64,000 nucleotides of DNA from Blastocatellia bacterium. Lineage in GTDB: Bacteria; Acidobacteriota; Blastocatellia; UBA7656. Positions 23,765 to 63,279 of this stretch are shown one piece after another. Position numbers and translations under genes: made by a program. The number at the start of each line of letters is the position of its first letter. Positions within the stretch are counted from its first letter, which is position 1. The DNA lies in assembly GCA_035258805.1 (NCBI GenBank), contig DATFWY010000251.1:843-64842 (forward strand). Reading direction: 5' to 3'. A model generated the notes under the pieces. That model ran no database searches. It had not been told where the DNA came from and saw nothing but the letters and a program-made list of their open reading frames with translations.

Positions 23765-23815
23765 GACTGATTGATCGGTCGGAGGATTATATGAACGCCC
23801 AAATATCATTGTCAA
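23765..23815 (-). promoter_or_regulatory. sigma70 promoter plus palindromic operator O1
   Basis: TTGACA (23815-23810), 18-bp spacer, TATAAT (23791-23786); GACTGATTGATCGGTC at 23765-23780. Confidence 0.85.
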
Positions 23816-23932
23816 GATCGCGCGCTTAATCGTCGACCTTTGATAGATTGGGATCGCGACTCAACACGCACTTGTTGATCTTGATTCCATTGCGTTCTAG
23901 GAGAAAACTGGCGCGACGAACAGTCGGCACGA

Positions 23933-26068
23933 CTACCGGCGCGTCGCAAGATTATTTAACAGTATAGAAACAGTGTCAGAGTCGCGATTTGCCACAGCTA
24001 AGTCGAGCTTCCCATCATTGTTAAAATCTGCGGCAGTAATCCCGCGCGTCGCCGCTGCGGCACCAAAACTTAACCCCGCCCGAAATCCTCCCTTGCCGTC
24101 GCCGAGCACCACCGAGACGGTTGCCGATCCAAAATTCACAACCGCCAGGTCCAAATTCCCGTCACCGTTGAAATCCCCTGCCGTTAGTACCGCCGAGGTT
24201 TCGCCGGCCGCAACATTCTGCGGTTGACCGAAGCGTCCTGCACCATCGCCGTACAACACCGATATGCTCGCTTCCGCTGTATTCGCTGTTGCGCCATCCA
24301 GCTTGCCGTCTTTATTGAAGTCACCAACAACAATCGAAAAGGGACCGCGGCCGGTTGCAAAATCGACGGCTTCTTTGAACCCGCCCTTTCCATCACCCAG
24401 CAATACCGAGACGCTCGACGAGCCGAGGTTCGCAGTTACTAAATCAATGTTTCCGTCGTTATTCAGATCTCCGGCCGCAACCCCGCTGGGCCCGCGCCCA
24501 GTTTTATAGTTAACAGCAGCGGAGAAGCTGCCGCTTCCATTCCCAAGCAATACCGAGATGGTATTTGAGTCCCGGTTCACAACGGCCACATCCAAATGAC
24601 CGTCCTTATTGAAATCCTGCACAACTAGAAAGCTCGGGCCGCCTCCGGTCTTAAAACTTGTTGGAGCTGAAAAACCTCCCTTGCCATCGCCCAACAGGAT
24701 TGCGACATCACCAGAGTTGTCGTTGCCTACAACCAGGTCCAGATTCCCATCGCTATTGAAATCTCCCGCGCCGACTGCTCGAGGTCCGTCGCCGGCTCCG
24801 AACTGAGTTGGCGCTCCGAATCCTCCCCTTCCGTCTCCGAGAACGATCGCGACTTTTGTGGGGAAAGCAGTCACCGCAAGGTCAATGTTTCCGTCCTTAT
24901 TAAAATCGGCGGCGACCAGTGCTCGTGGGAAATGTCCTACCGGGTAATTTGGACAGTCGATTAGTCCGCCCCTTCCGTCGCCAGGAAGGATCGAAACACT
25001 TTCCGAATCGCGGTTGGACACGGCAACATCCGGGTTTCCATCCTTGTTGAAGTCGGCTATACCGACGGCAATAGGAAAGTCTCCGACCTTAAAGTTCTTT
25101 GCAGTCGAGAAACTTCCCCGACCGTCGCCACTCAACACCGAAACTGTCCCGGAGAGACGATTCGCTGTCACCAAATCGGCGTGTCCATCTCGATTCAAGT
25201 CAGCACTGCAAATGTATTGCGGTTCAGCACCAACATTGAAATGTTTCGGTGGAGAAAAATGAGCGGTGCCATCGCCGATCCAGACGGTCACAAAACCGGA
25301 CTTCGGATGTGCGGTGACAAGGTCTTGCTTGCCATCCTCGTTAACATCGGCGGAGATTACAGAAATTGGATTATCACCAACGCCCAAATCATCTCCCGGC
25401 TTAAAAGCTCCTTTTCCGTCTCCGAGCAGGATGGTAACGTTCGCAGAGCGCCTGTTGGCGACTGCGAGATCGAGGTTGCCGTCACGGTTAAAGTCCGCGC
25501 AGGCGATTGAACGCGGCTCGCTTCCCGCCCTCACGGTGAGTGGTTCTCGAAAACCACCCTTGCTGTCTCCTAACAAAACGGAAACACTGTTCGAGAAGCC
25601 ATTGGATACAGCAATGTCTGCCGCCGCGTCGTGGTTGAAATCTCCGGACACGACCGAGGTAGGACCATCACCAACTGGGTAGTTTTTAACTTGGTTCATA
25701 CCCCGGTGACCGTCTGAGATCAATACTGACACATTGGCTGAGAGCCAGTTCGCCACGACGATATCCGAATGGCCGTCGCCGTTGAGGTCTGAGAGGATGA
25801 CGGCGATCGGCGCGCTGCCGACGGCGATCCTGGTTTCCGAGTCTAAGCCGCCGGAGGCATTACCGAAGAAGACCGAGACAGCGCCGGATCCAAAATCTGC
25901 TGAGACCAAGTCGAGGTTTCCGTCGCTGTCGATGTCAGCGATGGCGATGGAGGCGGGGTAGTGTTTGACTGTGATTTCGCGTCGAGCTTGAAAGGAAATC
26001 TCCTGGCCTGGCGCAACTATGAGGCCGGTTAGCAGTGACATGAGGAGCGTTGACAACAAGATTCTCAT
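23933..26068 (-). CDS. Secreted FG-GAP/VCBS repeat protein (14 repeats)
   Basis: Signal peptide and 14 D-x-N/D-x-D-G/A-x-x-D motifs counted. Confidence 0.93.
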   Translation of the reverse strand: MRILLSTLLMSLLTGLIVAPGQEISFQARREITVKHYPASIAIADIDSDGNLDLVSADFGSGAVSVFFGNASGGLDSETRIAVGSAPIAVILSDLNGDGHSDIVVANWLSANVSVLISDGHRGMNQVKNYPVGDGPTSVVSGDFNHDAAADIAVSNGFSNSVSVLLGDSKGGFREPLTVRAGSEPRSIACADFNRDGNLDLAVANRRSANVTILLGDGKGAFKPGDDLGVGDNPISVISADVNEDGKQDLVTAHPKSGFVTVWIGDGTAHFSPPKHFNVGAEPQYICSADLNRDGHADLVTANRLSGTVSVLSGDGRGSFSTAKNFKVGDFPIAVGIADFNKDGNPDVAVSNRDSESVSILPGDGRGGLIDCPNYPVGHFPRALVAADFNKDGNIDLAVTAFPTKVAIVLGDGRGGFGAPTQFGAGDGPRAVGAGDFNSDGNLDLVVGNDNSGDVAILLGDGKGGFSAPTSFKTGGGPSFLVVQDFNKDGHLDVAVVNRDSNTISVLLGNGSGSFSAAVNYKTGRGPSGVAAGDLNNDGNIDLVTANLGSSSVSVLLGDGKGGFKEAVDFATGRGPFSIVVGDFNKDGKLDGATANTAEASISVLYGDGAGRFGQPQNVAAGETSAVLTAGDFNGDGNLDLAVVNFGSATVSVVLGDGKGGFRAGLSFGAAAATRGITAADFNNDGKLDLAVANRDSDTVSILLNNLATRR

Positions 26069-26083
26069 AATCGCTCAAGGCCT

Positions 26084-26130
26084 GACCGATCAGTCAGTCA
26101 GATACTACTTACAGTCGTTTCATCAGTCAA
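26084..26130 (-). promoter_or_regulatory. sigma70-like promoter plus operator O2
   Basis: TTGACT (26130-26125), 17-bp spacer, TAGTAT (26107-26102); minus-strand GACTGACTGATCGGTC at 26099-26084. Confidence 0.75.
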
Positions 26131-26229: not shown

Positions 26230-26277
26230 TTGACAAGCTTCCCTCTTTATGCTACGGTCGCGACTGATCGGTCAGTC
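26230..26277 (+). promoter_or_regulatory. sigma70-like promoter plus operator O3
   Basis: TTGACA (26230-26235), 17-bp spacer, TACGGT (26253-26258); GACTGATCGGTCAGTC at 26262-26277. Confidence 0.75.
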
Positions 26278-26399: not shown

Positions 26400-27002
26400 A
26401 TGTCGATGACAGATATTCATTTCACCACGACCTCCGCCAAAGTCTTCGCGCCGCTGCTCCGGCTCCTATATCAGAGCGGCTTCTTCTTCGCACCTGTCTT
26501 TCTTTCAGTGATGACCATCCCAGCCATCGCCCTGTTCATATGGGTCGTCAAGAAAATACGGCGCAACCGCACCCTCAGCGCTACTTCACGCACGATCCGG
26601 ATCTTCTGGTTCTCCTTCTATTTCTATATCTCCTGGATGGCACTGAATTCTCTCGCAGTCGGATTTAAGACAATGATTGTAGAAGAGCTTGTATACCAGG
26701 AGCGGAAATGGTTCGAACCTTATCTGCCTGGAATTCACTTCTATATTACTAGTGCGTGCCTCGCTTATCTCGCCCTTATCGTCAATTCGCGGTACCGGTT
26801 CATAGATCTGCTGCTTGCCATTTACTTGCAAGTCGCGCTTATTGCGGGCTATGCGACCGCAGGTTACAGAACTTTCAACGAGGATCGAGACGGCGCTATC
26901 GGAGGAGTTCTCCTCCTTCTCTTTTTCGCAGTGTGCAACTACGACCTAGTCAAGCGTGTATACAAGAGTCGCGCTTGGCAGCTTCTGCCGCAGCCTGCGT
27001 AG
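26400..27002 (+). CDS. Hypothetical membrane protein (~5 TM)
   Basis: 200-aa hydrophobic ORF downstream of promoter O3. Confidence 0.75.
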   Translation: MSMTDIHFTTTSAKVFAPLLRLLYQSGFFFAPVFLSVMTIPAIALFIWVVKKIRRNRTLSATSRTIRIFWFSFYFYISWMALNSLAVGFKTMIVEELVYQERKWFEPYLPGIHFYITSACLAYLALIVNSRYRFIDLLLAIYLQVALIAGYATAGYRTFNEDRDGAIGGVLLLLFFAVCNYDLVKRVYKSRAWQLLPQPA

Positions 27003-27158
27003 AAGCTTGAGGATCAACCTGTCTGAGGCGGGCTAGGGTTGTCTCTTTTTCATAATGTGTTCGGTCAGCCTGGAATTGCTGGAAAGAGCCATTCGCGGCT
27101 GCACCGGGCAATGTGAATGATACAGATTAGCGTTTCGGCGGGTTCCGAGGGCAAACTG

Positions 27159-28040
27159 ATGCTCAGAACCATCATCGTTTCGCTTATTGTCGCCTCCACC
27201 CTCGCGTGTGACCATCTTCGGCATGACAATCATGCCTCCGCTGCGGCTGTTGTTCCGGAGGCTGAAAAAATAAAACACCCTGAGCTGGAGCCCGAGCTTG
27301 TGTTTATACCCCCAAGCCGTTGTCTCATTGGCAGCGAGAACCGTGGAGCAGGTGAACGACCCACTCACCAGGTTAGTCTTGACGGATATTATATTGGGCA
27401 ATTCGAAGTAACAAACGGACAGTTCAAGACCTTCTGTGATGAAACAGGGCGCAAGTATCCGGAAGCTCGATGGACTCATCATTCTCACGACGCGTCGGCC
27501 TCATATCTTATTGAAAAGCCCAGTTACCCAGTGGTGGACGTGAACTGGGACGATGCTGTGGCTTATTGCAAGTGGTTAAGCGAGAAGACACATAAGAAGT
27601 ACAGACTCCCCACTGAGGCTGAGTGGGAAAATGCGGCGCGCGGCGGATTAGAAGGCAAGCTATATCCGTGGGGAGATGAGCCTTACGATTCAAACGGAAG
27701 TTATCGCGCGAACTGTGGCTCCGAAGCGGATAACGATGGCGTTCGATCGAGGGATGGTTTTCTTTACGCTGCGCCAGTCGGAAGTTTCCCGCCAAATGGT
27801 TACGGTATCTACGATATGGCCGGCAACGTCTGGGAGTGGTGTTCGGACGTTTATGATGAACAGTATTACTCCCGTTCACCCGATGCTAATCCAGAGAATT
27901 CGGAGGTCGGCGATAAGCGTGTGGTACGCGGCGGCTCCTGGTTCGGCGGTCCCGACAAATTGAGGTGTGCCGCAAGGCTCTGGAACTACGCATCAATTCG
28001 CTATGCCAGCACCGGATTTCGTGTCGCAATGACGCCGTAG
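27159..28040 (+). CDS. FGE/SUMF1-domain lipoprotein (not a catalytic FGE)
   Basis: FEVTNGQF, PVVDVNWDDA, RLPTEAEWE, DMAGNVWEW, GFR; lipobox-like LAC; likely ATG 27159. Confidence 0.9.
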   Translation: MLRTIIVSLIVASTLACDHLRHDNHASAAAVVPEAEKIKHPELEPELVFIPPSRCLIGSENRGAGERPTHQVSLDGYYIGQFEVTNGQFKTFCDETGRKYPEARWTHHSHDASASYLIEKPSYPVVDVNWDDAVAYCKWLSEKTHKKYRLPTEAEWENAARGGLEGKLYPWGDEPYDSNGSYRANCGSEADNDGVRSRDGFLYAAPVGSFPPNGYGIYDMAGNVWEWCSDVYDEQYYSRSPDANPENSEVGDKRVVRGGSWFGGPDKLRCAARLWNYASIRYASTGFRVAMTP

Positions 28041-28090
28041 GCGTACAACTCCTGATAAAGATGAGACCCGAAAAGGACTCGGAGGTAACA

Positions 28091-31000
28091 ATGAAAATCA
28101 CTCGAAACGCTCCTACACTCTCCGCTCGTGCTTTCGTTGCGTTTGTTCTGCTCTCCATTCTCTCTTTGCACGCTCCATTATCGACTGCCCAAAACCTGAC
28201 AGCCACGGTCTTCGGCGTGGTCTCAGATGCTAACGGCGCTTTAGTTTCCGACGCGAAGATAATCGTTAGGAATGTTCAAACTAATGCGACGCGATCGGGC
28301 ATGAGTGACGGAGAGGGCCGATTTCACATCGGCGATCTCGCGCCAGGAGAATACGATGTAATCGCAGAACATCAGGGCTTCAGAAAGGAGCTGCGTACGG
28401 GCATCGTGCTCACCGTCGGACGCGACGCGGCAGTGAATTTCACGCTGGAAGTAGGAGCCGTTACTGATCAGATGATCATAACCGGGGATGCCCCTCTGGT
28501 TAATACCACATCTTCAGAGATCTCGGCACTGGTAAACGAACGGACGATCAAGGAGCTGCCGCTCAACGGTCGAGACCTCTTCCAGTTGGCAACCTTGCAG
28601 ATAGGAGTTGTAAACGCGGGAACTCTGACTGACGAGCCGCTCGACGCAGGCACTGGAGCGGTAAAGATGTCGATCAATGGTGGCCGGATCACATACAATA
28701 ACTTCCTGCTGGATGGAGCCACCGTCAACGAAGTTCAGAACACCACGCCGGGATCCGTCGCTGGAGGCTTCACTGGCGTAGATGCTGTGCAAGAGTTCCA
28801 ACTGTTGACCAACAACTACAGCGCGGAGTTTGGCGGGGCTAGCGGCGGTATAATCAATATTGTCAGCAAATCTGGCGGCAATCAGCTTCACGGAACCGCG
28901 TTCGAGTTCGCGCGCAATTCTGTATTTGACGCGCGCAACTTCTTCGACCTCGAGGACGTGCCGGATTTCAGCCGTAATCAGTTCGGCGGCAGCATCGGAG
29001 GACCGATTAAAAAGGACAAGACATTCTTTTTCGGGGCCTACGAAGGTTTCCGGGAAACCCTTACCAAGTCACAAAGATTCTTCGTGCCAACAGAGGCCGC
29101 GCGTAAGGGCATTCTCCCGTCAGGTCCAGTCGTGGTGGCTGATTCGGTTAAACCCTATCTTGCCCTCTATCCGCTACCGAATGCAGGCGACATAGGCGGC
29201 GGCCTTGGGGCTTTCATAAGGGGCGAGAGCGGAGAAACAAACGAAGATTTTTTCGCGATACGCATAGATCACACGCTATCTTCAAAAGATACCCTGTTCG
29301 GCAGGTACACGTTTGATAATTCCAACAGCACCAAGCCCGATCATGTGATCTCCGACTCAGTTCTGGAGGGACGCAATCAATACGTTGGTCTTGGTGAGAC
29401 CCACATCTTCAATGCTAAATTGCTGAACAACCTGCGGGCTTCCTACGCCCGCACCAAAGTCTTTGGAGATCTGGTCGATGTGGTCCAGGTTCCACAATCT
29501 CTCGTCTGGGTGCCGGGTCAGACAGTGCTCGGGCTTTTCCGGGATATCGGAGGGCTTACACCGCTCTCCGATCGAATCCTTGTGCCTCGGTTTCTGATCC
29601 AGAACAACATTCAGTTTAACGATCAGCTCACTTATACTCGAGGCACTCATAGCATGAAGATGGGCTTTAGCGAGCTTAGGACACAACTAAACGCGGTATC
29701 GACCGACGTACCAGCCGGGGCTTACATCTTTGGATCTTATGCGAATTTCCTGAGGGGCAGGACGCAAATCTTCGCTGCGCCGCTAGCAAACGCAAACGAT
29801 CCTTATCGAGGAATCCGCACCTGGGCCACTGCGGCCTACTTTCAAGATGACTGGAAGGTACGAAGAAATGTGACACTGAACCTCGGACTCCGTTACGAGA
29901 CGATCACCAGTCCGGACGAAGTCAACGGCAAGATAACCAACATTCGCGATATTCTGCACGACACCAAGCCGACTGTTGGGCACCCCTTCTTCAAAAACAA
30001 CACCCTCAAAGACTTTGGTCCGCGGCTCGGCTTCGCCTGGGATATCACCGGGGACGGCAAGACCAGTCTCAGAGGAGGGTATGGGATTTTCTATCCATTG
30101 CTTCTTCCATATTCTTACCGATTCGAAATGTCTGGCGTAGATCCATTCTTTGTAATTGGGCTGGCGTTCGGATCGGTGTTCGGCGCTCCGGAGACTTTTC
30201 CCAACTCGTTCTCCCATGTTGCGAATGTTCCCGGAGCCATTGCAGAAACGGTATACGACTTCGATCCGGCGACCTCTTATGTGCATCAATGGAACTTGAG
30301 CGTTCAAAGAGACCTTGTGCGCGGCCTCACAGCAACTGTCGCATACGTCGGATCAAGAGGAATCCATTTGCCGACTAATGGCAACCGCAACACCGCGGGG
30401 AACTTTATTATTCTTCCAAACGGTGAGAAGCAGTTTCCAGTGACCGGAAATAACCCTCGTCGGAATCCTGCCTTTGGGCCTATTCGTCAGCAAACACACA
30501 ACGGAGATTCCTATTATCACGGATTGCAGGCAAACCTGGAGCGTCGCTTCGCCAATGGCTTACAGTTTCAGGCAGCGTACACATTCTCGAAATCTATCGA
30601 CACTGCCTCCGATAGCCTCGGCTATTACACTTTAGACGCAGTACAGTTGTCTCAAGATCCTTCTAATCAAAGAGGAGAGAGGGGCCTGTCGGCGTTCGAT
30701 GTTCGCCACAATTTTTCGCTAAACGCTATCTATCAACTGCCGTATCACGGCGAGCCGGGAGCGCAGGGTGGGCGAAGAGTGTCTGACTGGTTCCTGGCTG
30801 ATTGGGAGGTAAACACCATCATTACCGCGCATTCCGGCACTCCGTTTAATCCAACCATCAGCTTCAACAACTCCCGAGACGGCAACCAGGATAATGTCGA
30901 AAGGCCCGACTGGGCGCCCGGCTTCACCGCAGGCAGCGCGACCACAGGAGATCCTCAACATTTCATCAATGAGAAGGCGTTCGTAGTTGCGCCGGTGGGC

Positions 31001-31270
31001 CAGTTTGGAAATGTCGCCAGAGACGCATTGATTGGACCGGATCTTTTCACTGTTGACCTCTCGCTGCTGAAGTCAATTCCGATCAAAGAGCGCGCTAAAC
31101 TACAGTTTAGGGCCGAAGCCTTTAACCTCTTTAACCGGGCTAATTTTGCACTGCCGGGGGTCGTGACGGTGTTTTCGCAAGGAGGGGTGACTCCGCCGAA
31201 TTTTGGACAGATCACTTCAACTGCAACGACTTCGCGGCAGCTGCAATTTGGCATCAAGTTCATTTTCTAG
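28091..31270 (+). CDS. TonB-dependent-receptor-like outer membrane protein 2
   Basis: ATG 28091 after GGAGG; EFQLLTNNYSAEFG, NQFGGSIGGP, terminal RQLQFGIKFIF. Confidence 0.92.
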   Translation: MKITRNAPTLSARAFVAFVLLSILSLHAPLSTAQNLTATVFGVVSDANGALVSDAKIIVRNVQTNATRSGMSDGEGRFHIGDLAPGEYDVIAEHQGFRKELRTGIVLTVGRDAAVNFTLEVGAVTDQMIITGDAPLVNTTSSEISALVNERTIKELPLNGRDLFQLATLQIGVVNAGTLTDEPLDAGTGAVKMSINGGRITYNNFLLDGATVNEVQNTTPGSVAGGFTGVDAVQEFQLLTNNYSAEFGGASGGIINIVSKSGGNQLHGTAFEFARNSVFDARNFFDLEDVPDFSRNQFGGSIGGPIKKDKTFFFGAYEGFRETLTKSQRFFVPTEAARKGILPSGPVVVADSVKPYLALYPLPNAGDIGGGLGAFIRGESGETNEDFFAIRIDHTLSSKDTLFGRYTFDNSNSTKPDHVISDSVLEGRNQYVGLGETHIFNAKLLNNLRASYARTKVFGDLVDVVQVPQSLVWVPGQTVLGLFRDIGGLTPLSDRILVPRFLIQNNIQFNDQLTYTRGTHSMKMGFSELRTQLNAVSTDVPAGAYIFGSYANFLRGRTQIFAAPLANANDPYRGIRTWATAAYFQDDWKVRRNVTLNLGLRYETITSPDEVNGKITNIRDILHDTKPTVGHPFFKNNTLKDFGPRLGFAWDITGDGKTSLRGGYGIFYPLLLPYSYRFEMSGVDPFFVIGLAFGSVFGAPETFPNSFSHVANVPGAIAETVYDFDPATSYVHQWNLSVQRDLVRGLTATVAYVGSRGIHLPTNGNRNTAGNFIILPNGEKQFPVTGNNPRRNPAFGPIRQQTHNGDSYYHGLQANLERRFANGLQFQAAYTFSKSIDTASDSLGYYTLDAVQLSQDPSNQRGERGLSAFDVRHNFSLNAIYQLPYHGEPGAQGGRRVSDWFLADWEVNTIITAHSGTPFNPTISFNNSRDGNQDNVERPDWAPGFTAGSATTGDPQHFINEKAFVVAPVGQFGNVARDALIGPDLFTVDLSLLKSIPIKERAKLQFRAEAFNLFNRANFALPGVVTVFSQGGVTPPNFGQITSTATTSRQLQFGIKFIF

Positions 31271-31381
31271 TTTTGTCGAAGCGAGCAAGGTCCTATCTAA
31301 AATCAGACCAGTGCATATTGAGCAGGCGCAAGTGTGCCCCCAAGTAGACTGCGGGTTTTGCTTCCCGCTTGGGCCATTACG

Positions 31382-32956
31382 ATGAGTTTTAAAAAAACGA
31401 CTCTCCTTTCGGCGATTGCGATTTCGGCATTTGTAAGCCTACTGACCAGGATTAGCAGTAATCCTCAAGCGTCCGCCGAGACAAAGGGCTACGCGATGTC
31501 AGGCAGGGTTTCGGATGTTCAAGGAAAAACCCTTCCAGGGATTTTTGTGAGCGCTCGTAATTCCGCAACCGGCCAAACTACGTATGCGCTCACTCAGGCC
31601 CAGGGGACCTTTCGCATTCCACATCTTCGAATGGGTGAGTATGACGTAAGAGTTGTCGATCGAGGCTGGCAGGGGGATGCACAACAAGTCAAACTGAGCG
31701 AAAACACTGCGTCGGTGAACCTCAAAGTGAAGCCTGATCGCATCGACATTTCAGAACTAACCAGCGCCGAGTTGTTGCCGCTATTGCCAGAGGGTGAGGG
31801 CAAACGGATTCTGCTTTCGAATTGTATCAGCTGCCACACACTCCAGAAGTTCGTTACAGGCACCTGGGATGCGAATGGCTGGAGCGGCATCGTCAACTCA
31901 ATGAAGAAGTCCTTTGGCGCTACGGTCCCAGAAGGGAAAGCCGGAATTCTCATTGATTTTTTGAGCGGTGCTTTTGCCCCGGAGTCGCACCTGCAAAAAG
32001 CTGCCAAAGCATTACGATTCACACCCGTAAAGCCGATCGAAGTAATCTATAACGCGTGGGACATTCCTCTTCAAAAGGCACTGCCGCATACTGTGACGCT
32101 CGATGCGCACGGCAATGGCTGGTTCACCGATCCCATGGGTTCGCGTTTGGGTTACCTCGATGTCGCAACTGGAAAGTTTAAGATCTGGCCCACCCCCACT
32201 CGCAACTCGCTCCCGCACGGAATCGTTGTGGACAAGCGAGGACAGGTCTGGTTCACAGAGCGGCTTCAGTTCGAACCTGCTAATAAGATCGCCAGCTTTG
32301 ACCCGTCGTCGGAGAAGTTTACCGAATATTCGTTGCCCCAAAACATTTCAGGACCTCATACCCCAATCCTCGATCGGCAGGGTATTTTGTGGATTACTGA
32401 ATACGAGGGCAATCGCATAGCGCGGTTTGATCCCGAAACACGGAAATTCACCGAATACAGTGTGCCCACAAAAGACGCCAAGCCATACGGCCTCGATATA
32501 GATAGGGATGGTGTAATCTGGATTGCAGAGATTGGAAGCGGGGGCCTTGGCAAGCTCGATCCCAAAGTTGGAAAGGTCGTTGACTATCCTACACCGACGA
32601 AGAATTCGGGCGTACGCCGCGTTCGGGCTGATTCAAAAGGGCGAATCTGGTTCACGGAATTCCTTGGCGATCGTCTGGGTATGTTTGATCCAAGGACTGA
32701 GAAGATGGTTGAGTTTTTAATGCCGGGCATCCGCCCTCAGCCATACGCACTGGAAGTAACGCACGATGACAAGATATGGCTATCTACCTGGCATCAGGAT
32801 TCGATGATCAGGTTTGATCCCGATACCGAGACCTTTTGCACGTACCCGGTACCCTTCCTTGATTTAGAAATCCGAGACTTCAGAGTCGATAGTGACGACA
32901 CAGTATGGTTCGTAGCGATGATACCGAACAAGATCGTAAGCATGAGCGTGCGTTGA
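31382..32956 (+). CDS. Secreted fusion: carboxypeptidase-like domain, cytochrome c and Vgb (virginiamycin B lyase)-like beta-propeller
   Basis: CISCH heme motif; repeats such as G-x-IWFTE/IWITE and FDP-x-T-x-KFTEY. Confidence 0.88.
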   Translation: MSFKKTTLLSAIAISAFVSLLTRISSNPQASAETKGYAMSGRVSDVQGKTLPGIFVSARNSATGQTTYALTQAQGTFRIPHLRMGEYDVRVVDRGWQGDAQQVKLSENTASVNLKVKPDRIDISELTSAELLPLLPEGEGKRILLSNCISCHTLQKFVTGTWDANGWSGIVNSMKKSFGATVPEGKAGILIDFLSGAFAPESHLQKAAKALRFTPVKPIEVIYNAWDIPLQKALPHTVTLDAHGNGWFTDPMGSRLGYLDVATGKFKIWPTPTRNSLPHGIVVDKRGQVWFTERLQFEPANKIASFDPSSEKFTEYSLPQNISGPHTPILDRQGILWITEYEGNRIARFDPETRKFTEYSVPTKDAKPYGLDIDRDGVIWIAEIGSGGLGKLDPKVGKVVDYPTPTKNSGVRRVRADSKGRIWFTEFLGDRLGMFDPRTEKMVEFLMPGIRPQPYALEVTHDDKIWLSTWHQDSMIRFDPDTETFCTYPVPFLDLEIRDFRVDSDDTVWFVAMIPNKIVSMSVR

Positions 32957-32975
32957 TCAATTCCGAAACTGGCTG

Positions 32976-50927: not shown

Positions 50928-51389
50928 CTATTTCGGCAGGTTCGTAGCTTGATGCGCTACCAGTCTCCACTGACCCTGCTGTTTCACGTAAACACGCAGA
51001 AAGCGGTTTTGCACAGTGTAATCCTGTCCCTGGTATTTCGCGTTGATGGTGTTTCGGCCCGCCAGGATTGCAGTATTGCCGTATACCTTGGCGACTACAT
51101 CGTCTCTTTCAATAGACAGGTATGTGCGGTCGCCCGCTTTGAACCCGGCTATGACCTCTGCTTTTGTTTCGACCTTCCCTGTCGGGTGTACATACGTACA
51201 GTCATCGGCAAGTATGCGGCTCAGGGCCGCGGTGTCGCCGTGCATGTAGGCCTCGGCTCGCTCAGTATCTACTTTCAACACTTCTTCCTCGGCTTTAACA
51301 TCGGCTGGCGTGCGCTTACTGTTCTCCTGGGCTTTGATTGAAAACACGGAAAGAAAAATTAAAGCACCAACAAAAGCGATCCGCTTCAT
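50928..51389 (-). CDS. Secreted NTF2-like (DUF4440) protein
   Basis: Signal peptide; ILADDCTYVHPTG, VYGNTAIL, WRLVAHQAT. Confidence 0.9.
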   Translation of the reverse strand: MKRIAFVGALIFLSVFSIKAQENSKRTPADVKAEEEVLKVDTERAEAYMHGDTAALSRILADDCTYVHPTGKVETKAEVIAGFKAGDRTYLSIERDDVVAKVYGNTAILAGRNTINAKYQGQDYTVQNRFLRVYVKQQGQWRLVAHQATNLPK

Positions 51390-51542
51390 ATCTTTTACAT
51401 CCTCCTTTGCAAAGTGCGCCTTGGCAAGAAGGCAACTTGCTCACTTATTCCACTCTCTCAAAGACTGTGTGAGAAATCATGAATACCACCGATGGGGCAG
51501 TGGGTGGTATTCAGGGCTTCACCCAGCCTCCCATGAATCGTC

Positions 51543-53021: not shown

Positions 53022-53054
53022 AATCGCTGGGATGCCCGCTTTAATTCTGAGCGT

Positions 53055-55240: not shown

Positions 55241-55307
55241 TGCTAACTTTTCGATAACATTCCTAGGTGCAATCGTGACCGTCCCAGGAAAGATTGATAA
55301 TTACGTG

Positions 55308-56795
55308 CTAAGGGCACGTCGCGCCGCTGACGCCAACTTCCTTGAGTTCTGAGCGATGAACTTCGAGCTGCTTTTTGAACCACGAGACTATAGTTGGCTC
55401 GAGTTCTCTGTCCTCACGAAAACGTAAGTACGCTACGATGCTGCCTGGATACGTAAGCACCTTGTTTGAGTAATTCTCCGCGACGGTAGAAGCGAAATTC
55501 CTTGTCAGCTCCCCCATTCCGTCACCGGTAACGACAAGAACAGGTTGCTTGATTGAACTCAGAGTGTCCCGGTCGCCCGCATCGCTCCACGCCCACACCA
55601 CGGGATCGAGCATCCCAATTGCTCTCAAGTTCGGATTCTCTTTTGCGCCGTTTAGAGCATAGTTAGCCGCGAGCAATGCACCCAGAACACCTATTCGATC
55701 AGCATCGACACCATTGCACGAAGTGAGCACCTGATAGCCTCTATGAAGGTCGCGTCGTCCCGCCATGATTTCTGCGAGACTTTGGTCAATGTATGACCCT
55801 TTGTTGATGCTTTTGCCGATGCCCCGATATTCAAGGTTAAGAAAGGCTATGTTATTGGCCAGCAGCAATCGCTCGAGATTCCGATAGATGTTTCGATCAG
55901 TTAGCGCGGTGGGTAGGAGGATTACTCCGGGAACTGTCTGTCCACGATCTATTGCTTCCGGTAAACCGAGATTTGCGTAGAGTATCCATCCGTCCTCGGT
56001 TTCAATTGTTATCTCGCGAACGTTGCCCAAAAGTCGAAGCTGCTCTTCCAGCCAGGCCCCCGCGGCGAAGTCCAACGCGTTCTCTATAGGCCGGTCGGCA
56101 TATCGATTGCGCCACATATTACACATCGTGACGCCTACGCCGAGACCGTCCTGCACCCAAATATCGCTTTGCGGGTTTTTATTCAAACTGTAAGCCTTGG
56201 TCATATCAGCGAAGCCTCGCTTGTCTTCTTTGCTGACGATGAACAGCATCGGCTTGTTTCTGTTTCCAGCTAACACCTCCATTGCGCTCTGAGACAGAAT
56301 TCCGGAGAGAAGCACCAGAACACCGACCCGCGAATCTTGCATGGCGCCTATCACTGCAGGTCCGGCGCTGAACTCTTCGGCCACGACTCCAATGCGTCTG
56401 TGATCCACCTCATCCTGCGTGCCGATAAAGTCGAGCGCGGCCCGGACGTCCAGCACAACCTTGTCGCGCTCGGCCTGAGGCATTTCTATGAATGGAGTTC
56501 CTCCTTCGCTTTTCCCGCGTCCTCGTATGTCGATCCGCAACGTGACCACAGATTCCTGAAGCTTCGCCCAACCGGGAAAGCTGACCCAAACTGACCGCGA
56601 GTGCATTGAAGAGTGAAGCAGAAGGACAGCGGGACGCCTCTCCGATTTGGGCTGCTTCGACGGGATGGTGAGGGAACCACTAATGGTCCAGCCATCTTCA
56701 GTAACAAAGGTCACTTCTTTCTGAATTGAATCTGGCTTCAAATAGAAACCAGCCGGCTTGTCGTCCTTCTCATTCATTATCTGGTTGAACTTCAT
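55308..56795 (-). CDS. Tandem (A+B) alpha/beta-hydrolase-fold protein, triad absent
   Basis: EVTFVTEDGW, AEEFS and GALLA elbows, YPGSIV. Confidence 0.85.
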   Translation of the reverse strand: MKFNQIMNEKDDKPAGFYLKPDSIQKEVTFVTEDGWTISGSLTIPSKQPKSERRPAVLLLHSSMHSRSVWVSFPGWAKLQESVVTLRIDIRGRGKSEGGTPFIEMPQAERDKVVLDVRAALDFIGTQDEVDHRRIGVVAEEFSAGPAVIGAMQDSRVGVLVLLSGILSQSAMEVLAGNRNKPMLFIVSKEDKRGFADMTKAYSLNKNPQSDIWVQDGLGVGVTMCNMWRNRYADRPIENALDFAAGAWLEEQLRLLGNVREITIETEDGWILYANLGLPEAIDRGQTVPGVILLPTALTDRNIYRNLERLLLANNIAFLNLEYRGIGKSINKGSYIDQSLAEIMAGRRDLHRGYQVLTSCNGVDADRIGVLGALLAANYALNGAKENPNLRAIGMLDPVVWAWSDAGDRDTLSSIKQPVLVVTGDGMGELTRNFASTVAENYSNKVLTYPGSIVAYLRFREDRELEPTIVSWFKKQLEVHRSELKEVGVSGATCP

Positions 56796-56838
56796 CGCCG
56801 AGATCTGTAACTGAGCTCCAGCCTGGGCTTTCTGGTGA

Positions 56839-57841
56839 CTACTTGAATCGAGGAATTACTTCTCGACCAAACAACTCAATGCACCGCAGAACATCCGAGT
56901 GATCAGGTCCGTGCGGATGCCGAAACATCAGGATCATCGTTTCACATCCGATTTCTGTTTGGTACTTCTCTATTTCGCGTATGACTACATCAGGTGTTCC
57001 GGCGATTAAGCGGCCGGATGCCGCCTGCTCGAAGCGCCAGCCTGATGGATCGACTCCTCCAGTGTCTTTGAATAGCCCGAGCTGAACATAAGGTTTATAG
57101 AAAGCCTTCACGCAAGGCCACCATTTGTCTACAACCTCGTGCTGGCTTGGGGCTACCCAGGCGCTTCGCGCCAGTGCCACCTCCGAAGGCCTGCCGTTAT
57201 CGACTGCGGATTGGCGATAAATCTTCGCCCACTCCCTAGTAGTCTCGATTCCCTGAAGATTGTCGGTGGGCCATCCGTCTCCAATTCTTCCTGCCCGCAA
57301 GAGCCCCGGTTTTGAAATCGCGCCAATCCAAATTCGTGGCCCATTCGGCTGCACTGGCCTTGGAGAAACGCGGACGTTTTCCAACTGAAAATGTTCGCCT
57401 GAGAATGAAACCGTCTCTTCAGACCACGCGCGCCTGATTACTTCGACACTTTCCTGGAAACGACGGACGATGCCGTTTTTAGGAATGCCAAAAGCTGATC
57501 GGTTTTTTTTGACCGAGTCCAACTCCGAGTATGAAGCGACCACGAGAGATGTTGTCGACAACTGCAGCAATCTCAGCAACGTGAACCGGATGCCACATTG
57601 GTAGCTGCATAACATCAGACGCAATGATCATCCGACTTGTCCGAGCCGCAAGCGCGGCGGAGAACGTGAGGGCCGATGGCAGGTAGCCATCTGGGCTGTG
57701 ATGGTGCTCGCCCACCACCGCAAAATCGAAGCCGAATTTCTCCGCCGCTTCAGCCTCGCGGAAGGCTTCGTTGTACACCAACGCGATGTTCTCGCCGCGA
57801 GGTGGATCTTGAGTGTTTAGAACTATCCCAAACCGCATCAC
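56839..57841 (-). pseudogene. LLM-class (luciferase-like) flavin-dependent oxidoreductase split by a frameshift
   Basis: N-part 57479-57841 (GEHHHSPDGYLPS, DNISRGRFILGVG); C-part 56839-~57510 (PRPVQPNGPRIWIG). The frames switch at an A8 run (T8 at 57503-57510). Confidence 0.85.
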
Positions 57842-57906
57842 ATTCTCGCGATCAAAAGAAAATACTTACTGGCGAAGAGAGTTCTTAGGATTGCGTGTTC
57901 GACCTC

Positions 57907-58016
57907 GAACCGCAGGGATTTACAATCTTGTTCCGGGAACTCTGCCACAATCGCGGTACTCTGCGTTCTCCGCGGTTAAAGTCATTTCAACCGCTTAGAG
58001 CGCTGAGGTAACAGAG
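57907..58016. repeat. Degenerate REP-like palindromic element (AACCGC...GCAGAG / CTCTGC...GCGGTT type)
   Basis: ctctgcgttctccgcggtt at 57959-57977, with aaccgc-containing arms on both sides. Confidence 0.4.
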
Positions 58017-58032
58017 GAATCTTAACAACACA

Positions 58033-59520
58033 TTAATTAATGCTCGCAGCGCGGCCAATTACTTTCTCAACGTCAGCCTCCACTAAGGTTCCTTTGAAGA
58101 AATCGGCATTCGTGCCGGCAAAGAGAGAGACCGGATTTCCGAAAACGAAATCGCGGAAATCGGTTTCAGTAATGAGTTCCTTGTCCACCAGCTCCCAGGC
58201 TTCCTCGACCACTCTTGCCATATCCGGGACATCCCAGTGCGAGATGTCCGAACCGAAGATTGCATTTAGTCGCGCTCCGAATGGATTTACTTTTGAGTTG
58301 AAGGACCACGCATTGATGGGATCATCGGCCTCACAGCCAAAATAGAAGCTATTCACAAAGAGATCGCGAATATCCTCGGCTTTTTGAATATTGCAGTAGG
58401 CCCATTCATCCGGTGTTGGTTCGGTCTGTTTTGCTTCGTCGCGAACGGCGGCTCCGGCCCCAAGAGCCAGCGGATCCCTGCCAAGCTGGTCCAAGCGTGC
58501 ACCCATCGATCCGCCATATTGCTTGTACAGGTCGAATAGCAGTTTGCGATCGAGGTTGGCAGGGTTGGTATTCTCAAGGGCGGAGACGTTGCGCTTCTCC
58601 CAGTGTCCTATCAAATCTGCGTACAAGCTGCACGCCCACCCGACTCCGCACTCAAGGAATGCAAACTTTAGGTTCGGGAACCGCCTTGTCACTCCTCCCA
58701 AAAAAAGAGATTTGCATACCGCTTCGCCGGCTGTAGCGAAGCTGCCAATATGGTTATACACATATGCGGAGATCGAGTTTCTACTTCCCCAACCTGTCGC
58801 GCCGGTATGAAAGCAGGGCGCTACTTTCAGCTCAACGCATTTTGCCCACACAGGATCATAGTCATACTCACTATCCAGCCCATACGTATCCAGCCAGAAT
58901 GCCCATCGCGATGCCTGGGGCATTTCGCGTATGGCGGCGGGAATGGGTCGACGCACATATGCCTGCATGAAAACGACCTTCATTCCCAGCACGTTAACGG
59001 CGTGTTCGAGCTCTTCAATCGCTTCTTGCGGTTTGTGCATCGGTATGACGGCAGCTGCAGTGATGCGATCAGAATATTCCCGGTACAGATCGGCGTAGTA
59101 GGTGTTGTATGCGCGGCAAACTGCGCGGCGCAATTCTTCGTCTTTCGGATAGGTGGCGGACATACCGACAGACGGAAAGAGCACAGTGAAGTCCATCCCG
59201 AATTCATCGAGCCGTTCGTATAGCAGGCGAGGCAGCGTAGCTGTTGCTCGATCCAATGTGTTCTTTGTGGGTGCGCCCCACCAGGGCGAACGGGCAACTC
59301 GTGTATCCAGCCGTTCTTCGGGCGACAGATGGTCCCAGCTGAATAACCTGCTGCCCGCTATTGACGACACGTAGCCGTCGACAACACCTGGTCCGCCGAC
59401 TTGTCTGAGGTAATCCAAGACATCAGGCTCGAACTCAATCATGTGCCCATCACAATCAATAATCGGATGACCTATATGGGCGCGAACGTTCGCAGATTTA
59501 CTCGCGCTGGGCTTGGTCAT
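58033..59520 (-). CDS. Amidohydrolase_2 family protein (decarboxylase/hydratase-like), cytoplasmic
   Basis: IDCDGH, CFHTG, FLECG, FGSDISHWD; likely ATG 59520. Confidence 0.9.
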   Translation of the reverse strand: MTKPSASKSANVRAHIGHPIIDCDGHMIEFEPDVLDYLRQVGGPGVVDGYVSSIAGSRLFSWDHLSPEERLDTRVARSPWWGAPTKNTLDRATATLPRLLYERLDEFGMDFTVLFPSVGMSATYPKDEELRRAVCRAYNTYYADLYREYSDRITAAAVIPMHKPQEAIEELEHAVNVLGMKVVFMQAYVRRPIPAAIREMPQASRWAFWLDTYGLDSEYDYDPVWAKCVELKVAPCFHTGATGWGSRNSISAYVYNHIGSFATAGEAVCKSLFLGGVTRRFPNLKFAFLECGVGWACSLYADLIGHWEKRNVSALENTNPANLDRKLLFDLYKQYGGSMGARLDQLGRDPLALGAGAAVRDEAKQTEPTPDEWAYCNIQKAEDIRDLFVNSFYFGCEADDPINAWSFNSKVNPFGARLNAIFGSDISHWDVPDMARVVEEAWELVDKELITETDFRDFVFGNPVSLFAGTNADFFKGTLVEADVEKVIGRAASIN

Positions 59521-60884
59521 GCTTCTCTCTCCGTTTCGACCAGGACAACCGGATCCGTCCATCCGGCATTTTCTTCCGGCTGCTCGTGCCCGCTCTTAAA
59601 TGTTCGTACTTTACTCGGACGAGCGCTCCAGACCAGCACAATCGATGAAGCTACAACGGCAGTGGCAATGATGAACATTGCGCGGTAGCCGCCGGTCTTA
59701 TCAAAAGCGTAACCACCCAACCATGCGCCGAAGGCTCCACCAAAGCCGCCCAGCATGTTCATCGCTCCAAAAATTGACCCGAATCGCTTCCCCTGAAAAA
59801 CATCTGCCGCTGACGCCATGATCGCCGGAAAACTCATACCGAAACCGACGCCAAAAAAGACCGCGTAACCGTAGAGTAGAATCGTGGTTGGATAAACCTG
59901 AATGAGACTGAGTGCAAGAATCCCGGCAATATAAATGATGGCGCTGAGAGTCAGCGTCTTTTCTCTTCCGACCCGATCCGACAGGATGCCTCCAACGAAA
60001 TTGCCCGCAGTCGACATCAGGCCCTGTAACCCTACAAACGAAGCGGCTGTGATGCTGCTGATTCCGGCTGATTGCAAATAGGCAACCAATTGAACGCCGA
60101 TGAGGAAAGTGGCTCCAGTGGCGACGATGAACAGGAGGGCCAACGCCCAGAAGCGATATGTCCTCGCTGCGTTCTTGAGAGTCCACTCCGTTCCGGCCCA
60201 CTGCCGATCCACAACAACCATCTGACGGCCACGGGCACCGTGCGAGCCAGTCCCGGCGCCGGACGAAACTTCCGGGTGATTCTCGAGGCCCTTATCTGCG
60301 GGCTTGTGCCTTTGAAACAGGATTATGATTGGCACCACTATGACTGTAATGATCGCCGCCAGCCAGATGTAGGCAACACGCCATCCGGAACGTGAAATTA
60401 CATACTGAATTGCCGGAAAGAAAACGAGCCTCCCCAGGCCGAGGCTTGCCATGATGATCCCCAGAGCAGTCGCACGATTACGCCCAAACCAGTTCGAAAT
60501 AATCGCAGCATGCGGCACGACTTGAACCGCACAGAGTCCGACCGCGCCTACCAATCCGAACCAAAGATAGAAATGCCACAACTGGTGAATCTGACTTGAT
60601 CCCACAAAACCAGCGGCGAGAAGCAGGGCCCCAATCGGCATAACAGTGCGTGGCCCGTAACGGTCTATCAGGAGTCCAATCAAAGGTGACAGCGCACCGC
60701 TGACGAACAGATTCAGCGAGTAAACACTTGCCGTCGCTGCGCGCGTCCAGCCAAACTCTGTCAATATTGGCGGGTAGAAGAGAGAGAAGGAAAACCACGC
60801 TGGCGAGACAATTGCCATCGTTACAAATGAGACGGCAACGACAATCCAACCATAGTAGACTTTTTGACTGGGCTTACTGTCCAT
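59517..60884 (-). CDS. MFS transporter (12 TM)
   Basis: YYGWIVV, GLLIDRYGPR, GILSDRVGR. Confidence 0.93.
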   Translation of the reverse strand: MDSKPSQKVYYGWIVVAVSFVTMAIVSPAWFSFSLFYPPILTEFGWTRAATASVYSLNLFVSGALSPLIGLLIDRYGPRTVMPIGALLLAAGFVGSSQIHQLWHFYLWFGLVGAVGLCAVQVVPHAAIISNWFGRNRATALGIIMASLGLGRLVFFPAIQYVISRSGWRVAYIWLAAIITVIVVPIIILFQRHKPADKGLENHPEVSSGAGTGSHGARGRQMVVVDRQWAGTEWTLKNAARTYRFWALALLFIVATGATFLIGVQLVAYLQSAGISSITAASFVGLQGLMSTAGNFVGGILSDRVGREKTLTLSAIIYIAGILALSLIQVYPTTILLYGYAVFFGVGFGMSFPAIMASAADVFQGKRFGSIFGAMNMLGGFGGAFGAWLGGYAFDKTGGYRAMFIIATAVVASSIVLVWSARPSKVRTFKSGHEQPEENAGWTDPVVLVETEREA

Positions 60885-60926
60885 TCTCTGATGACTGCCG
60901 CCCTATTCCGAGGGAAGCTGATATTC

Positions 60927-61595
60927 CTAATCCTTGGTTTTGAGGTATGCCTTGATACGATTCAACGTTGTCGCACCGATCCCCTTAACTCGCAGCAGAT
61001 CTCCGACTGACCCGAACGCACCGGAGGACTCGCGGCTCTCGACTATTGCTCCGGCAAGCTCAGGCGTCAGACCGGGTAACCGCGCGAGTGCTTCGGCCGA
61101 GCTTGTATTTAGATTCATTGGGAGCTGTTCAATGGGGTTCTTTTCGCCAAAATTTTTCGATAGGTAGTCGATCAGCGGTTGAACATCTTCTTTGTCAACA
61201 GGAGCCTGATACGCTGAGATCATCTTCTGAACAGTAGTGCGCCAGTTGCTGCTTGATTTTTTTTGAGTTATGACCTGACTAAGGTCATGGCAACTCGAGC
61301 ATGCCAGCGCGACCTCAGCCTTCCCCGACCCTTCCGGCAAGAAAACGCTCCAGTCAACTTTCTCCGCTTTAGTTCCAGCGGCATCTTGATTGGCGACCGT
61401 AGAACGCGCTGCGCTAACAAGCGAGGCAACTGCAACCGTCAAACAGATGACACATTTTGTCCATTTCAAACGCGGCAGCCTGGGCGCATCCGAACCGAGC
61501 CTTCCCTCCTGGCTGGCGCGATGCACCGGAGACTGTCCCGTCTCCGGTCGCTTACTATTTGTATTCCTTCTTGGCTCGATCAATCGCCTCGCCAT
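60927..61595 (-). CDS. Cytochrome c plus ComEA-type helix-hairpin-helix fusion
   Basis: CSSCH; MNLNTSSAEALARLPGL...GAF-x-SV-x-DLLRVKGIG. Confidence 0.88.
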   Translation of the reverse strand: MARRLIEPRRNTNSKRPETGQSPVHRASQEGRLGSDAPRLPRLKWTKCVICLTVAVASLVSAARSTVANQDAAGTKAEKVDWSVFLPEGSGKAEVALACSSCHDLSQVITQKKSSSNWRTTVQKMISAYQAPVDKEDVQPLIDYLSKNFGEKNPIEQLPMNLNTSSAEALARLPGLTPELAGAIVESRESSGAFGSVGDLLRVKGIGATTLNRIKAYLKTKD

Positions 61596-63105
61596 AAGCC
61601 TTCCGCGCTTCCTGCTTCATATAGGTTTCAGGGTCGTTGGCGTAGTCTTTCATGTAATCGCCAGGTACGTTTATACCGGGAATTGCTGGAATCCAGTCTT
61701 CGCTCAACAGATCGTCAACGGTGCCATATTCTGGATGACTGGCAACGATCTTTGCGGCCAGTTCTCGAACGCTCGGGTCATCCATTGCTGTCAGGTGCCC
61801 CTTGTCTATGAGCTTTACTTCACGACCATCCTTTAGCTTACAGGTGTAAGTTGCAAAGTAGAGGTGTGCGTGGAAGTGATAAAACGGCAGTGATGGTTTT
61901 TGCCTGAGAGCCCATATCAGGTCGAGCGCCTGGCCAATACCGAGGTGCATAACACCAGAACGATCCCGCTCGCCTATAAAAGTTGGTCGCACGGTCGATG
62001 ATTCAAAGACATTGAACGGACGAATGACTTTTGGAGACGTGCCGATCGCTGCCTCGATGAACCAGTCAATGCCGGGACCGGGATAGTGCGGGAATTTAAC
62101 GTCCTTGTATTTTTCGATGAAGTCGGTCCAGAGCTTACCGAATTCACCGCCCCCTTCGATCCGAGTAATTTTATTGTGCTCCAGGAAGATCTTGATATGC
62201 GGGTAAGGACCTATATGATCAGAAGTACCTGCGACAACCCCATGCAAGTCAGACTTTGGAAGCACGATCCCAAACGGATATCCGGTAAGGTGCCCCGAGA
62301 TGATTGGGTCTTTGAGTGAGCCGTGGTGATAGACGTGAGTGCCGAATCCCTCGGTTTGGTAGCCCGGGTAGTTGCCATCCATTATTTGCCAGTACTCAGG
62401 GAACCAGGTAAACGTGACATCCGTTCCTTCCGGATCGGTGATCCTTACGGTATCGGTCTGCCTGAGGACTTTCCAGGAGACGCGATCCATCGCCTCGATA
62501 AGTTCCTCCGGGTACATTACCGCGGGGCTCGCGAGTTGCTCGCGTGTGGGCCAATCCATTGAAAAGCTGTAATACTTCAGCGTGCAGTTATTGTTTGCCC
62601 AAAAGGTTTGTCCGATTACCTTGTCATAGCCGGATTTCTTTGCGACTTCTTCTGTCCACTCGGGCCCCCCGAGCATCCACGCAGCCGGTTGGCTATCTAC
62701 AAGGATCTTCATCAGTTCGGGTGTTTTGAAGAGCCTTCTCTTTCCTTGCTCCTGGAAGACGTCGACCTGACACTTCATTTCGTCCCTGAGTACGCGCATG
62801 AAGGCTTCGAGCACCAATGGGTCAACATCGCTGTCTATGACGAAGAGGACTTTCTCGCCTCCTTTAACCGCATAGCCGGGGCGTTGATCGCCGGTATAGG
62901 GCATTGGTCTCTGGACTATTCGGCGGACGTAAGGGAGGAGCTGATCGGCGGTAGTAATCTCGGGGATCTTAGGATAACGTGGCGCCGGATAATCAAACTT
63001 AGCAGCTAGTGGCTTTTCGCTTCTTGCGTGTGATGGAACAGTAGCAGGTAAAAAGACGAGAAGCGCGATTGAGACGATGAATAGGCGGAAAGCTTTTCTA
63101 AACAT
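61555..63105 (-). CDS. Secreted M29-aminopeptidase/NicX-fold metalloprotein 2
   Basis: Likely ATG 63105 with signal peptide; EAAIGTSP, HLGIG, HFHAH. Confidence 0.7.
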   Translation of the reverse strand: MFRKAFRLFIVSIALLVFLPATVPSHARSEKPLAAKFDYPAPRYPKIPEITTADQLLPYVRRIVQRPMPYTGDQRPGYAVKGGEKVLFVIDSDVDPLVLEAFMRVLRDEMKCQVDVFQEQGKRRLFKTPELMKILVDSQPAAWMLGGPEWTEEVAKKSGYDKVIGQTFWANNNCTLKYYSFSMDWPTREQLASPAVMYPEELIEAMDRVSWKVLRQTDTVRITDPEGTDVTFTWFPEYWQIMDGNYPGYQTEGFGTHVYHHGSLKDPIISGHLTGYPFGIVLPKSDLHGVVAGTSDHIGPYPHIKIFLEHNKITRIEGGGEFGKLWTDFIEKYKDVKFPHYPGPGIDWFIEAAIGTSPKVIRPFNVFESSTVRPTFIGERDRSGVMHLGIGQALDLIWALRQKPSLPFYHFHAHLYFATYTCKLKDGREVKLIDKGHLTAMDDPSVRELAAKIVASHPEYGTVDDLLSEDWIPAIPGINVPGDYMKDYANDPETYMKQEARKAYGEAIDRAKKEYK

Positions 63106-63230
63106 AGATTGCCTCGTTATCCGGGAGAGGTTGTAGTTTCTAAGGTTGCGCAAGAGGTTCGGGAAGGGACGCTGCTTATGTTGCGCTGGCACTCCTGCAT
63201 CTGCCTACGTTTCCATCTTTTGGGGATGCT

Positions 63231-63279
63231 GACTGATTGGTCGGTCACCTATTTATCAAACCGCTTGTTCAGATGTCAA
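63231..63279 (-). promoter_or_regulatory. sigma70-like promoter plus operator O4
   Basis: TTGACA (63279-63274), then TGaTAAATA -10-like sequence; GACTGATTGGTCGGTC at 63231-63246. Confidence 0.75.

Follow-up and report, generated by a model that had tools for sequence, protein, structure and literature searches.

A 64,000-nucleotide stretch of the genome of a Blastocatellia bacterium, a member of the phylum Acidobacteriota, was analysed (GenBank assembly GCA_035258805.1, contig DATFWY010000251.1; C251:843-64842, hereafter the window). The window contains four copies of a palindromic 16-mer, GACYGAYYRRTCRGTC, at 23765, 26084, 26262 and 63231, and a gene encoding a TetR-family regulator at 15895-16581. 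The palindrome is rare in the genome, occupies a fixed position relative to promoters, and is inherited together with this TetR gene and with a set of target genes. Because it is inherited together with this one TetR gene, the 16-mer, which forms part of an 18-bp palindrome, is in all likelihood the operator of the TetR. We infer that the TetR binds these sites, represses the promoters that carry them and is released by a ligand.

The four 16-mers had been described in an original prediction made from the sequence of the window, and all of them were recovered at the same positions and on the same strands (O1 to O4, Table 1). The degenerate pattern behind the four matches, GACYGAYYGRTCRGTC, is predicted to occur 0.01 times in the window by dinucleotide shuffles, and none of 100 shuffles contained as many copies. 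The full palindrome extends over 18 bp, yGACyGAyyrrTCrGTCr, in which Y at -1 and R at +17 flank the 16-mer, and its commonest variant is GACCGATTAGTCAGTC. None of six site variants searched for appears in the searchable full-text literature of about 8.4 million papers. When the window was scanned with up to three mismatches to the perfect palindrome, no extra copy was found except an overlapping register of O2, in agreement with the earlier statement that no copy was seen in the other intergenic gaps. This second, weaker register of O2 (26080-26095, within 26080-26099) is offset by 4 bp, and a register shifted by 4 bp is also present in L054:7021-7040 (7021/7025); both arise because GACn/GAYn has a 4-bp periodicity within the half-sites.

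In this genome, seven of the eight sites found begin 2-5 nt past the -10 box of a TTGAC(A/T)-N16-18 promoter. When the relatives are included, 24 of 31 sites are preceded by a sigma-70-type promoter whose score reaches at least the 99th percentile for random positions (8.5), and in 20 of these 24 the 16-mer is separated from the -10 box by 2-3 nt. The window sites lie 25-29 bp past the end of a TTGACA or TTGACT -35 box, as had been reported, and the promoter described as a perfect TTGACA-18-TATAAT is indeed found at O1. The -35 and -10 hexamers of the O3 promoter recur at L036:253. Sites are found in both orientations relative to the promoter, with GACCGAT...AGTCAGTC preferred in the direction of transcription, and their flanks share only the promoter boxes. 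At locus L041 of a metagenomic relative, whose TetR is 58% identical, two operators 54 bp apart (2767 and 2821) bracket one promoter, one adjoining the -35 region and the other following the -10 box. Since the sites start 2-5 nt past the -10 box, the likely start site would fall within them; if the -10 box is placed at -12 to -7, the operator would span roughly -4 to +13. An operator over the start site is in the classical position for steric repression, and a TetR dimer bound there represents the textbook mechanism.

The genome-wide scan with the motif, which had been proposed as a check of the original prediction, found the strict pattern eight times in the 8.26-Mb, 338-contig assembly, against about 0.1 copies expected from composition. 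Besides the four window sites, these are C154:6352, 10859, 22131 and 43027, and all eight fall in two functionally related clusters, one in the window and one on C154. With a symmetrised position weight matrix (PWM), the eight sites score 24.2-24.5 bits, followed, after a drop of more than 5 bits, by 19.1 (the second register of O2), 18.8 and 18.5 bits. Promoters precede three of the C154 sites: TTGACA starts exactly 33 nt before the start of the site, and TAGAAT, TATAAT or CAAAAT stands 3-4 nt ahead of it. Among the weaker matches, the one-mismatch site GACCGGCCAGTCGGTC at C333:68844-68859 (18.5 bits) follows a minus-strand promoter with TTGACA, a spacer of 17 nt, TAGTAT and a gap of 2 nt, and lies about 350 nt upstream of genes for a 1177-aa TonB-dependent receptor and a cyclase-like 334-aa protein. 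It is probably a ninth operator, within a regulon promoter with a long leader. Three other candidates were dropped: C58:7613 (one mismatch, 18.8 bits) lies inside a 1069-aa open reading frame (ORF), C139:30551 lies inside a 308-aa ORF, and C144:36318, although it falls between ORFs, differs in its central tetramer and lacks a promoter.

The C154 cluster (6352-44377, about 38 kb, loci L001-L003) is paralogous to the window cluster and of the beta-oxidation type, and carries four operators. Its paralogues of window genes encode a CoA ligase (55% identity), two thiolase-like proteins together with a DUF35 protein, MFS transporters, amidohydrolases and a GMC oxidoreductase. In addition, it encodes DoxX, a cupin, an enoyl-CoA hydratase, a short-chain dehydrogenase (SDR), three acyl-CoA dehydrogenases, a fused electron-transfer flavoprotein (ETF beta-alpha), a Kelch protein, AhpC, two haem-oxygenase-like proteins, an HbpS-like protein, an aspartate dehydrogenase, an aldehyde dehydrogenase and a di-haem oxidoreductase. 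No TetR paralogue or other regulator was found in the C154 cluster, and the TetR is the sole recognisable transcription factor of the window and the C154 cluster together.

The distribution of the palindrome in relatives follows that of the TetR. A protein search retrieved 87 homologues, among which the orthologues are 54-88% identical and, wherever named, are assigned to Blastocatellia or Acidobacteriota. In a survey of 301 genomes of the class, a TetR orthologue was found in five, with 8, 4, 2, 3 and 0 strict sites. Of the remaining 296, G163 has four sites and all others have 0-2. G163 is 81% complete and fragmented, and a contig end truncates its core operon immediately ahead of the place where the TetR gene would be expected. 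The association between the orthologue and the presence of at least two sites across the 301 genomes is significant (Fisher test, p = 3e-6). In metagenomic loci with TetR orthologues 58-87% identical, the motif precedes orthologues of both the window and the C154 operons, nearly always behind a TTGAC(A/T), N17-18, -10 promoter. Sites are kept at orthologous promoters in genomes from different families: L036:435 is orthologous to O2 and precedes the FG-GAP orthologue, and sites orthologous to O3 precede the same operon in L036, L039, L042 and L057. In G034, the motif lies 40 nt past the stop codon of the TetR gene. The regulon is conserved in several Blastocatellia lineages. A looser pattern, GACYGANNNNTCRGTC, was also counted in 40 relatives, but gave counts similar to those of a reversed-pattern control and was uninformative until its centre was tightened to YYRR.

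As had been claimed, the TetR gene is the last gene of the unit read from O1, and this order is conserved: the core operon with TetR last is kept in L036, L037, L056, L057 and L058. In L039 the TetR gene adjoins the FGE/TonB/propeller operon, and in L041 it follows a hydrolase/MFS operon. The recognition helix, GLAYGSIYDYV, is almost unchanged in the orthologues, with one conservative change in a few of them, whereas 35%-identical paralogues differ in it; a near-constant recognition helix fits an unchanged operator. No close TetR paralogue exists in the genome, the next best protein being 33% identical.

The protein has the N-terminal helix-turn-helix and the all-helical C-terminal domain for ligand binding and dimerisation, with about 9-10 helices overall, that define the TetR family. 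Members of this family bind as dimers to palindromic operators of 15-18 bp that overlap promoters of linked genes, and are released by small molecules. TetR_N (PF00440) is recognised at residues 38-81 of a longer ORF with a TTG start (34.5 bits, cutoff 24), and TetR_C_24 (PF17932) with 41.2 bits (cutoff 26.4). The AlphaFold2 model is all-helical with 10 helices (predicted local confidence, pLDDT, 86; predicted template-modelling score, pTM, 0.81), and alpha1-3 have a pLDDT above 90. A fold search with the model gave 461 PDB matches at E <= 0.001; regulators of the TetR family account for nearly all of the best 50 listed. The closest folds are DarR, KstR2, FadR, PfmR, AibR and SaFadR. By sequence, the best solved relatives are 3dcf, KstR2, Bacillus FadR and a Thermus TetR (3vpr), with E values of 2e-13 to 1e-11, and the match to Thermus FadR (3ang) is weaker (E 2e-8).

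In the mechanism we propose, one TetR dimer would bind each palindrome and, because the operator spans the start site, would block RNA polymerase from forming or leaving the open complex. Binding of two dimers, as in FadR or QacR, was considered but not adopted as a general model, since most sites lack the second register seen in O2 and L054; one dimer per site is the simpler arrangement for sites with a single register. Four promoters with 37 genes would be controlled in the window, and the O1 promoter would drive the operon of the TetR itself, resulting in negative autoregulation. Elsewhere, the TetR would act at three promoters and one promoter-less internal site on C154 and probably at the promoter of the TonB receptor on C333, giving a regulon of up to about 70 genes at three loci. 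The original prediction had the TetR repressing the whole cluster including itself. The comparative evidence supports the operator and the autoregulation. Repression of the whole cluster presupposes that all 24 genes of operon D are read from the O4 promoter. The regulon extends beyond the cluster, with four sites on C154 and a probable one on C333, and appears to be about twice the size previously thought.

Several observations weigh against this assignment. The gap in PWM scores is partly circular, because the sites used for the matrix were chosen by the pattern. C154:22131 and its counterpart L043:7249 in G014 lie in the short gap between the SDR gene and the first acyl-CoA dehydrogenase gene and have no recognisable promoter, so that repression at a start site does not explain them; this promoter-less intergenic site is conserved in two genomes of the genus, and may act as a transcriptional roadblock or within a weak internal promoter. 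G119 has a TetR orthologue and no strict site, in a fragmented assembly of 1150 contigs, and five genomes without the orthologue (G057, G208, G268, G189 and G228) have two sites each. The last two observations would also be expected if the palindrome were the operator of a different, unlinked DNA-binding protein, with the TetR controlling something else or fine-tuning operon A, and the TetR gene of G034, which has no strict site upstream, points the same way. Such a protein is nevertheless unlikely, as the motif tracks the TetR orthologue across the 301 genomes, no other regulator is conserved near the sites in related loci, and the recognition helix remains nearly constant while the protein diverges to 54% identity.

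The fixed position 2-3 nt past the -10 box implies that the motif is partly transcribed, and a scan for hairpins followed by T-runs picked up O4, both of which would suit a promoter or transcript element, either a start-site or discriminator signature read by the polymerase or an alternative sigma factor, or a hairpin at the 5' end of the mRNA with an effect on stability or translation. We regard this as very improbable. The motif occurs in both orientations, in one case ahead of a -35 box (L041:2767) and in two cases between genes where no promoter is present; the commonest variant would put a C-A mismatch in an RNA stem; a likely start site inside the palindrome would truncate the hairpin; and the ordinary sigma-70 -35 and -10 boxes require no special sigma factor. 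Taken together, the palindromic sites, their two orientations, the pair in L041 and the promoter-less sites point to a dimeric DNA-binding protein rather than to a promoter or RNA element. The idea that the copies are left over from a short mobile or repetitive element is effectively refuted, as is chance recurrence. Elements of the repetitive extragenic palindromic (REP) type are typically short palindromes, and an origin from these or from miniature inverted-repeat transposable elements (MITEs) might be considered for that reason, but the eight copies in the genome are confined to one functional gene set, share nothing in their flanks beyond the promoter boxes, are conserved at orthologous promoters across families and far exceed the window count predicted by shuffles.

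Among characterised regulators, KstR and KstR2, which repress cholesterol catabolism in Mycobacterium and Rhodococcus, offer the nearest parallel, each being a TetR that represses itself and a large catabolic regulon at many loci through a short palindrome, and KstR is the closest in logic. The ligand of KstR2 is a CoA thioester and its operator is AnCAAGnnCTTGnT. KstR2 shares the TetR_C_24 domain with the TetR of the window and is among its best PDB matches (E about 6e-13), and in both systems the targets include CoA ligases, acyl-CoA dehydrogenases, and thiolase-like and DUF35 proteins. Mycobacterial KstR represses its own gene and governs 74-83 genes of lipid and cholesterol catabolism by way of a 14-bp palindrome present at 16-31 intergenic sites (PMC1995591). 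Its motif, TnnAACnnGTTnnA (PMC1995591), is unrelated to GACYGAYYRRTCRGTC. Unlike KstR and KstR2, the present protein is found in Acidobacteriota (Blastocatellia), is only 18-25% identical to KstR- and FadR-type proteins (about 20% to KstR2), and would control a regulon with many exported hydrolases, TonB receptors and propeller proteins. No steroid ring-cleavage enzymes were recognised when the two clusters were scanned with Pfam and NCBIfam. An orthologue of KstR or KstR2 is ruled out by the unrelated operator, the low identity to KstR2 and this negative scan, and the JGI label 'cholesterol catabolism regulator' carried by some orthologues is automatic.

TetR-type FadR proteins of B. subtilis, B. 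halodurans, Thermus and Sulfolobus are repressors of beta-oxidation genes that are released by acyl-CoA. In both sequence and fold they are near the top of the matches (1vi0, 3whb, 5gp9, 6en8). The half-site of FadR is ATGA(A/G)T, in contrast to GACYGAY here; moreover, most sites here have a single register, and the regulon is far broader than fatty-acid degradation. FadR of B. halodurans recognises 16-bp pseudo-inverted repeats (PMC5397183), and the second register at 4 bp in O2 and L054 recalls its two overlapping repeats with two dimers. PaaR and PfmR (Thermus) and AibR (Myxococcus), repressors that particular acyl-CoAs release, are also close in fold (3vpr, 5k7z) and similar in logic, with a pathway CoA thioester as inducer, which is plausible here too, and a repressor gene linked to CoA ligase or thiolase genes; unlike the present TetR, they control small local regulons through different operators. 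Judged by its sequence and operator, this TetR is a new member of the family and an orthologue of neither KstR nor FadR.

The comparison bears on the inducer. KstR2, FadR, AibR, PfmR and SaFadR are mostly sensors of CoA thioesters, and DarR is a cyclic-nucleotide sensor. As the nearest solved relatives are mostly acyl-CoA sensors, a CoA thioester is a plausible inducer, and the two acyl-CoA ligases and the beta-oxidation set in the regulon make a CoA thioester of the pathway the most plausible one. The TetR_C_24 domain is closest to those of known acyl-CoA binders, as in the acyl-CoA-responsive subgroup. We tentatively propose as ligand a CoA thioester that the acyl-CoA ligases of the regulon would themselves produce. 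Two points count against an acyl-CoA ligand: the homology from which it is argued is distant, at the identities given above, and DarR has an equally close fold.

To our knowledge, descriptions of transcription-factor regulons in Acidobacteria are very few, and we found none for Blastocatellia. It is conceivable, at somewhat less than even confidence, that a single repressor controls about 70 genes at three loci encoding a catabolic pathway that is so far undescribed in soil Blastocatellia, is in large part exported or periplasmic, and has its own CoA thioester as the inducer. The pathway would start with TonB-dependent uptake and proceed through unusual two-domain alpha/beta-hydrolase-fold proteins and amidohydrolases to periplasmic flavin and cytochrome dehydrogenases; activation to a CoA ester would then be followed by beta-oxidation-like cleavage by thiolase-like/DUF35 pairs. 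The substrate might be an organic-acid ester or amide that originates from plants or humus. The repressor-operator link would tie three scattered loci, including many genes whose annotations carry no function, into one co-regulated unit and guide the search for the substrate of an abundant pathway of soil bacteria. If the assignment is true, the motif would list the pathway genes in any genome, and a biosensor for the substrate could be built. The mechanism itself is ordinary and adds no new principle; what a well-defined regulon offers is annotation and pathway discovery in a phylum that has been little studied.

Table 1 Operators, promoters and transcription units of the window
Feature	Position	Strand	Details
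Operator O1	23765..23780		GACTGATTGATCGGTC; in promoter direction (minus) GACCGATCAATCAGTC; PWM 24.5 bits
Operator O2	26084..26099	minus	GACTGACTGATCGGTC in promoter direction; 16 nt upstream of the ATG of the FG-GAP gene
Operator O3	26262..26277		GACTGATCGGTCAGTC; most symmetric copy
Operator O4	63231..63246		GACTGATTGGTCGGTC; in promoter direction (minus) GACCGACCAATCAGTC
Operon A promoter	23786..23815	minus	TTGACA 23815..23810, 18-nt spacer, TATAAT 23791..23786, 5 nt to O1; score 11.5
FG-GAP gene promoter	26102..26130	minus	TTGACT 26130..26125, 17 nt, TAGTAT, 2 nt to O2; score 9.0
Operon C promoter	26230..26258	plus	TTGACA 26230-26235, 17 nt, TACGGT, 3 nt to O3; score 9.0
Operon D promoter	63250..63279	minus	TTGACA 63279..63274, 16-18 nt, GATAAA or TAAATA, 3-5 nt to O4; score 9.5
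TetR gene	15895..16581	minus	228 aa; ATG at 16581, preceded by the Shine-Dalgarno sequence GGGGAGG
Operon A	15895..23641	minus	7 genes, TetR last (Pfam and NCBIfam)
FG-GAP/VCBS-repeat protein gene	23933..26068	minus	711 aa; read from the O2 promoter
Operon C	26400..34496	plus	Divergent from the O2 gene; downstream of O3
Operon D	34553..63192	minus	24 co-directional, tightly packed genes behind O4

Besides the TetR, operon A encodes an alpha/beta-hydrolase (466 aa), a hydrolase of the alpha/beta-hydrolase fold (272 aa), an acyl-CoA ligase, an unknown 509-aa protein, an SCP-x-type thiolase-like protein and a DUF35/ChsH2-type OB-fold protein. In L056, L057, L058 and the P0053 locus, a gamma-glutamyltranspeptidase gene lies divergently beside the core operon or the FG-GAP gene, and it is absent from this place in the window. 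Operon C encodes an unknown 200-aa protein, an FGE-sulfatase-fold protein, a TonB-dependent receptor of the acidobacterial type (CarboxypepD_reg plus OMP_b-brl_4), a Vgb-lyase-like propeller and a PQQ-like propeller.

Operon D encodes two unknown proteins of about 500 aa, an HHH protein, two MFS transporters, four amidohydrolases, five to six alpha/beta-hydrolase-fold proteins, a frameshifted luciferase-like monooxygenase, a TPP enzyme, a cytochrome c, a GMC oxidoreductase with two Gluconate_2-dh3-like subunits, and Dabb, GYD, SnoaL and DUF4440 proteins. Neither the mismatch scan nor the PWM revealed a further operator inside operon D. Its intergenic gaps are mostly below 100 nt and its terminator-like matches are not more frequent than in shuffled sequences (26 versus 20.6 +/- 4.0), making it plausible that the O4 promoter drives all 24 genes; internal promoter-like matches are likewise at the level of shuffled sequences, and neither count is informative about internal promoters or terminators. 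For the key enzymes, NCBIfam gave generic names alone (acyl-CoA ligase, thiolase-domain, TPP-requiring protein), and four proteins were left without a family.

The luciferase-like monooxygenase gene of operon D is split over two overlapping frames on the minus strand (56839-57841), with ORF 57479-57841 matching positions 1-116 of the Bac_luciferase profile and ORF 56839-57624 matching positions 114-308, which represents either a frameshift pseudogene or an assembly error. Just past the TetR end of the cluster, a fragment of the phage-integrase family is present (14499-14834, 111 aa, matching profile positions 19-58 only). This fragment is a hint that the region was once mobile, in keeping with the patchy occurrence of the regulon in 5-6 of the 301 class genomes.

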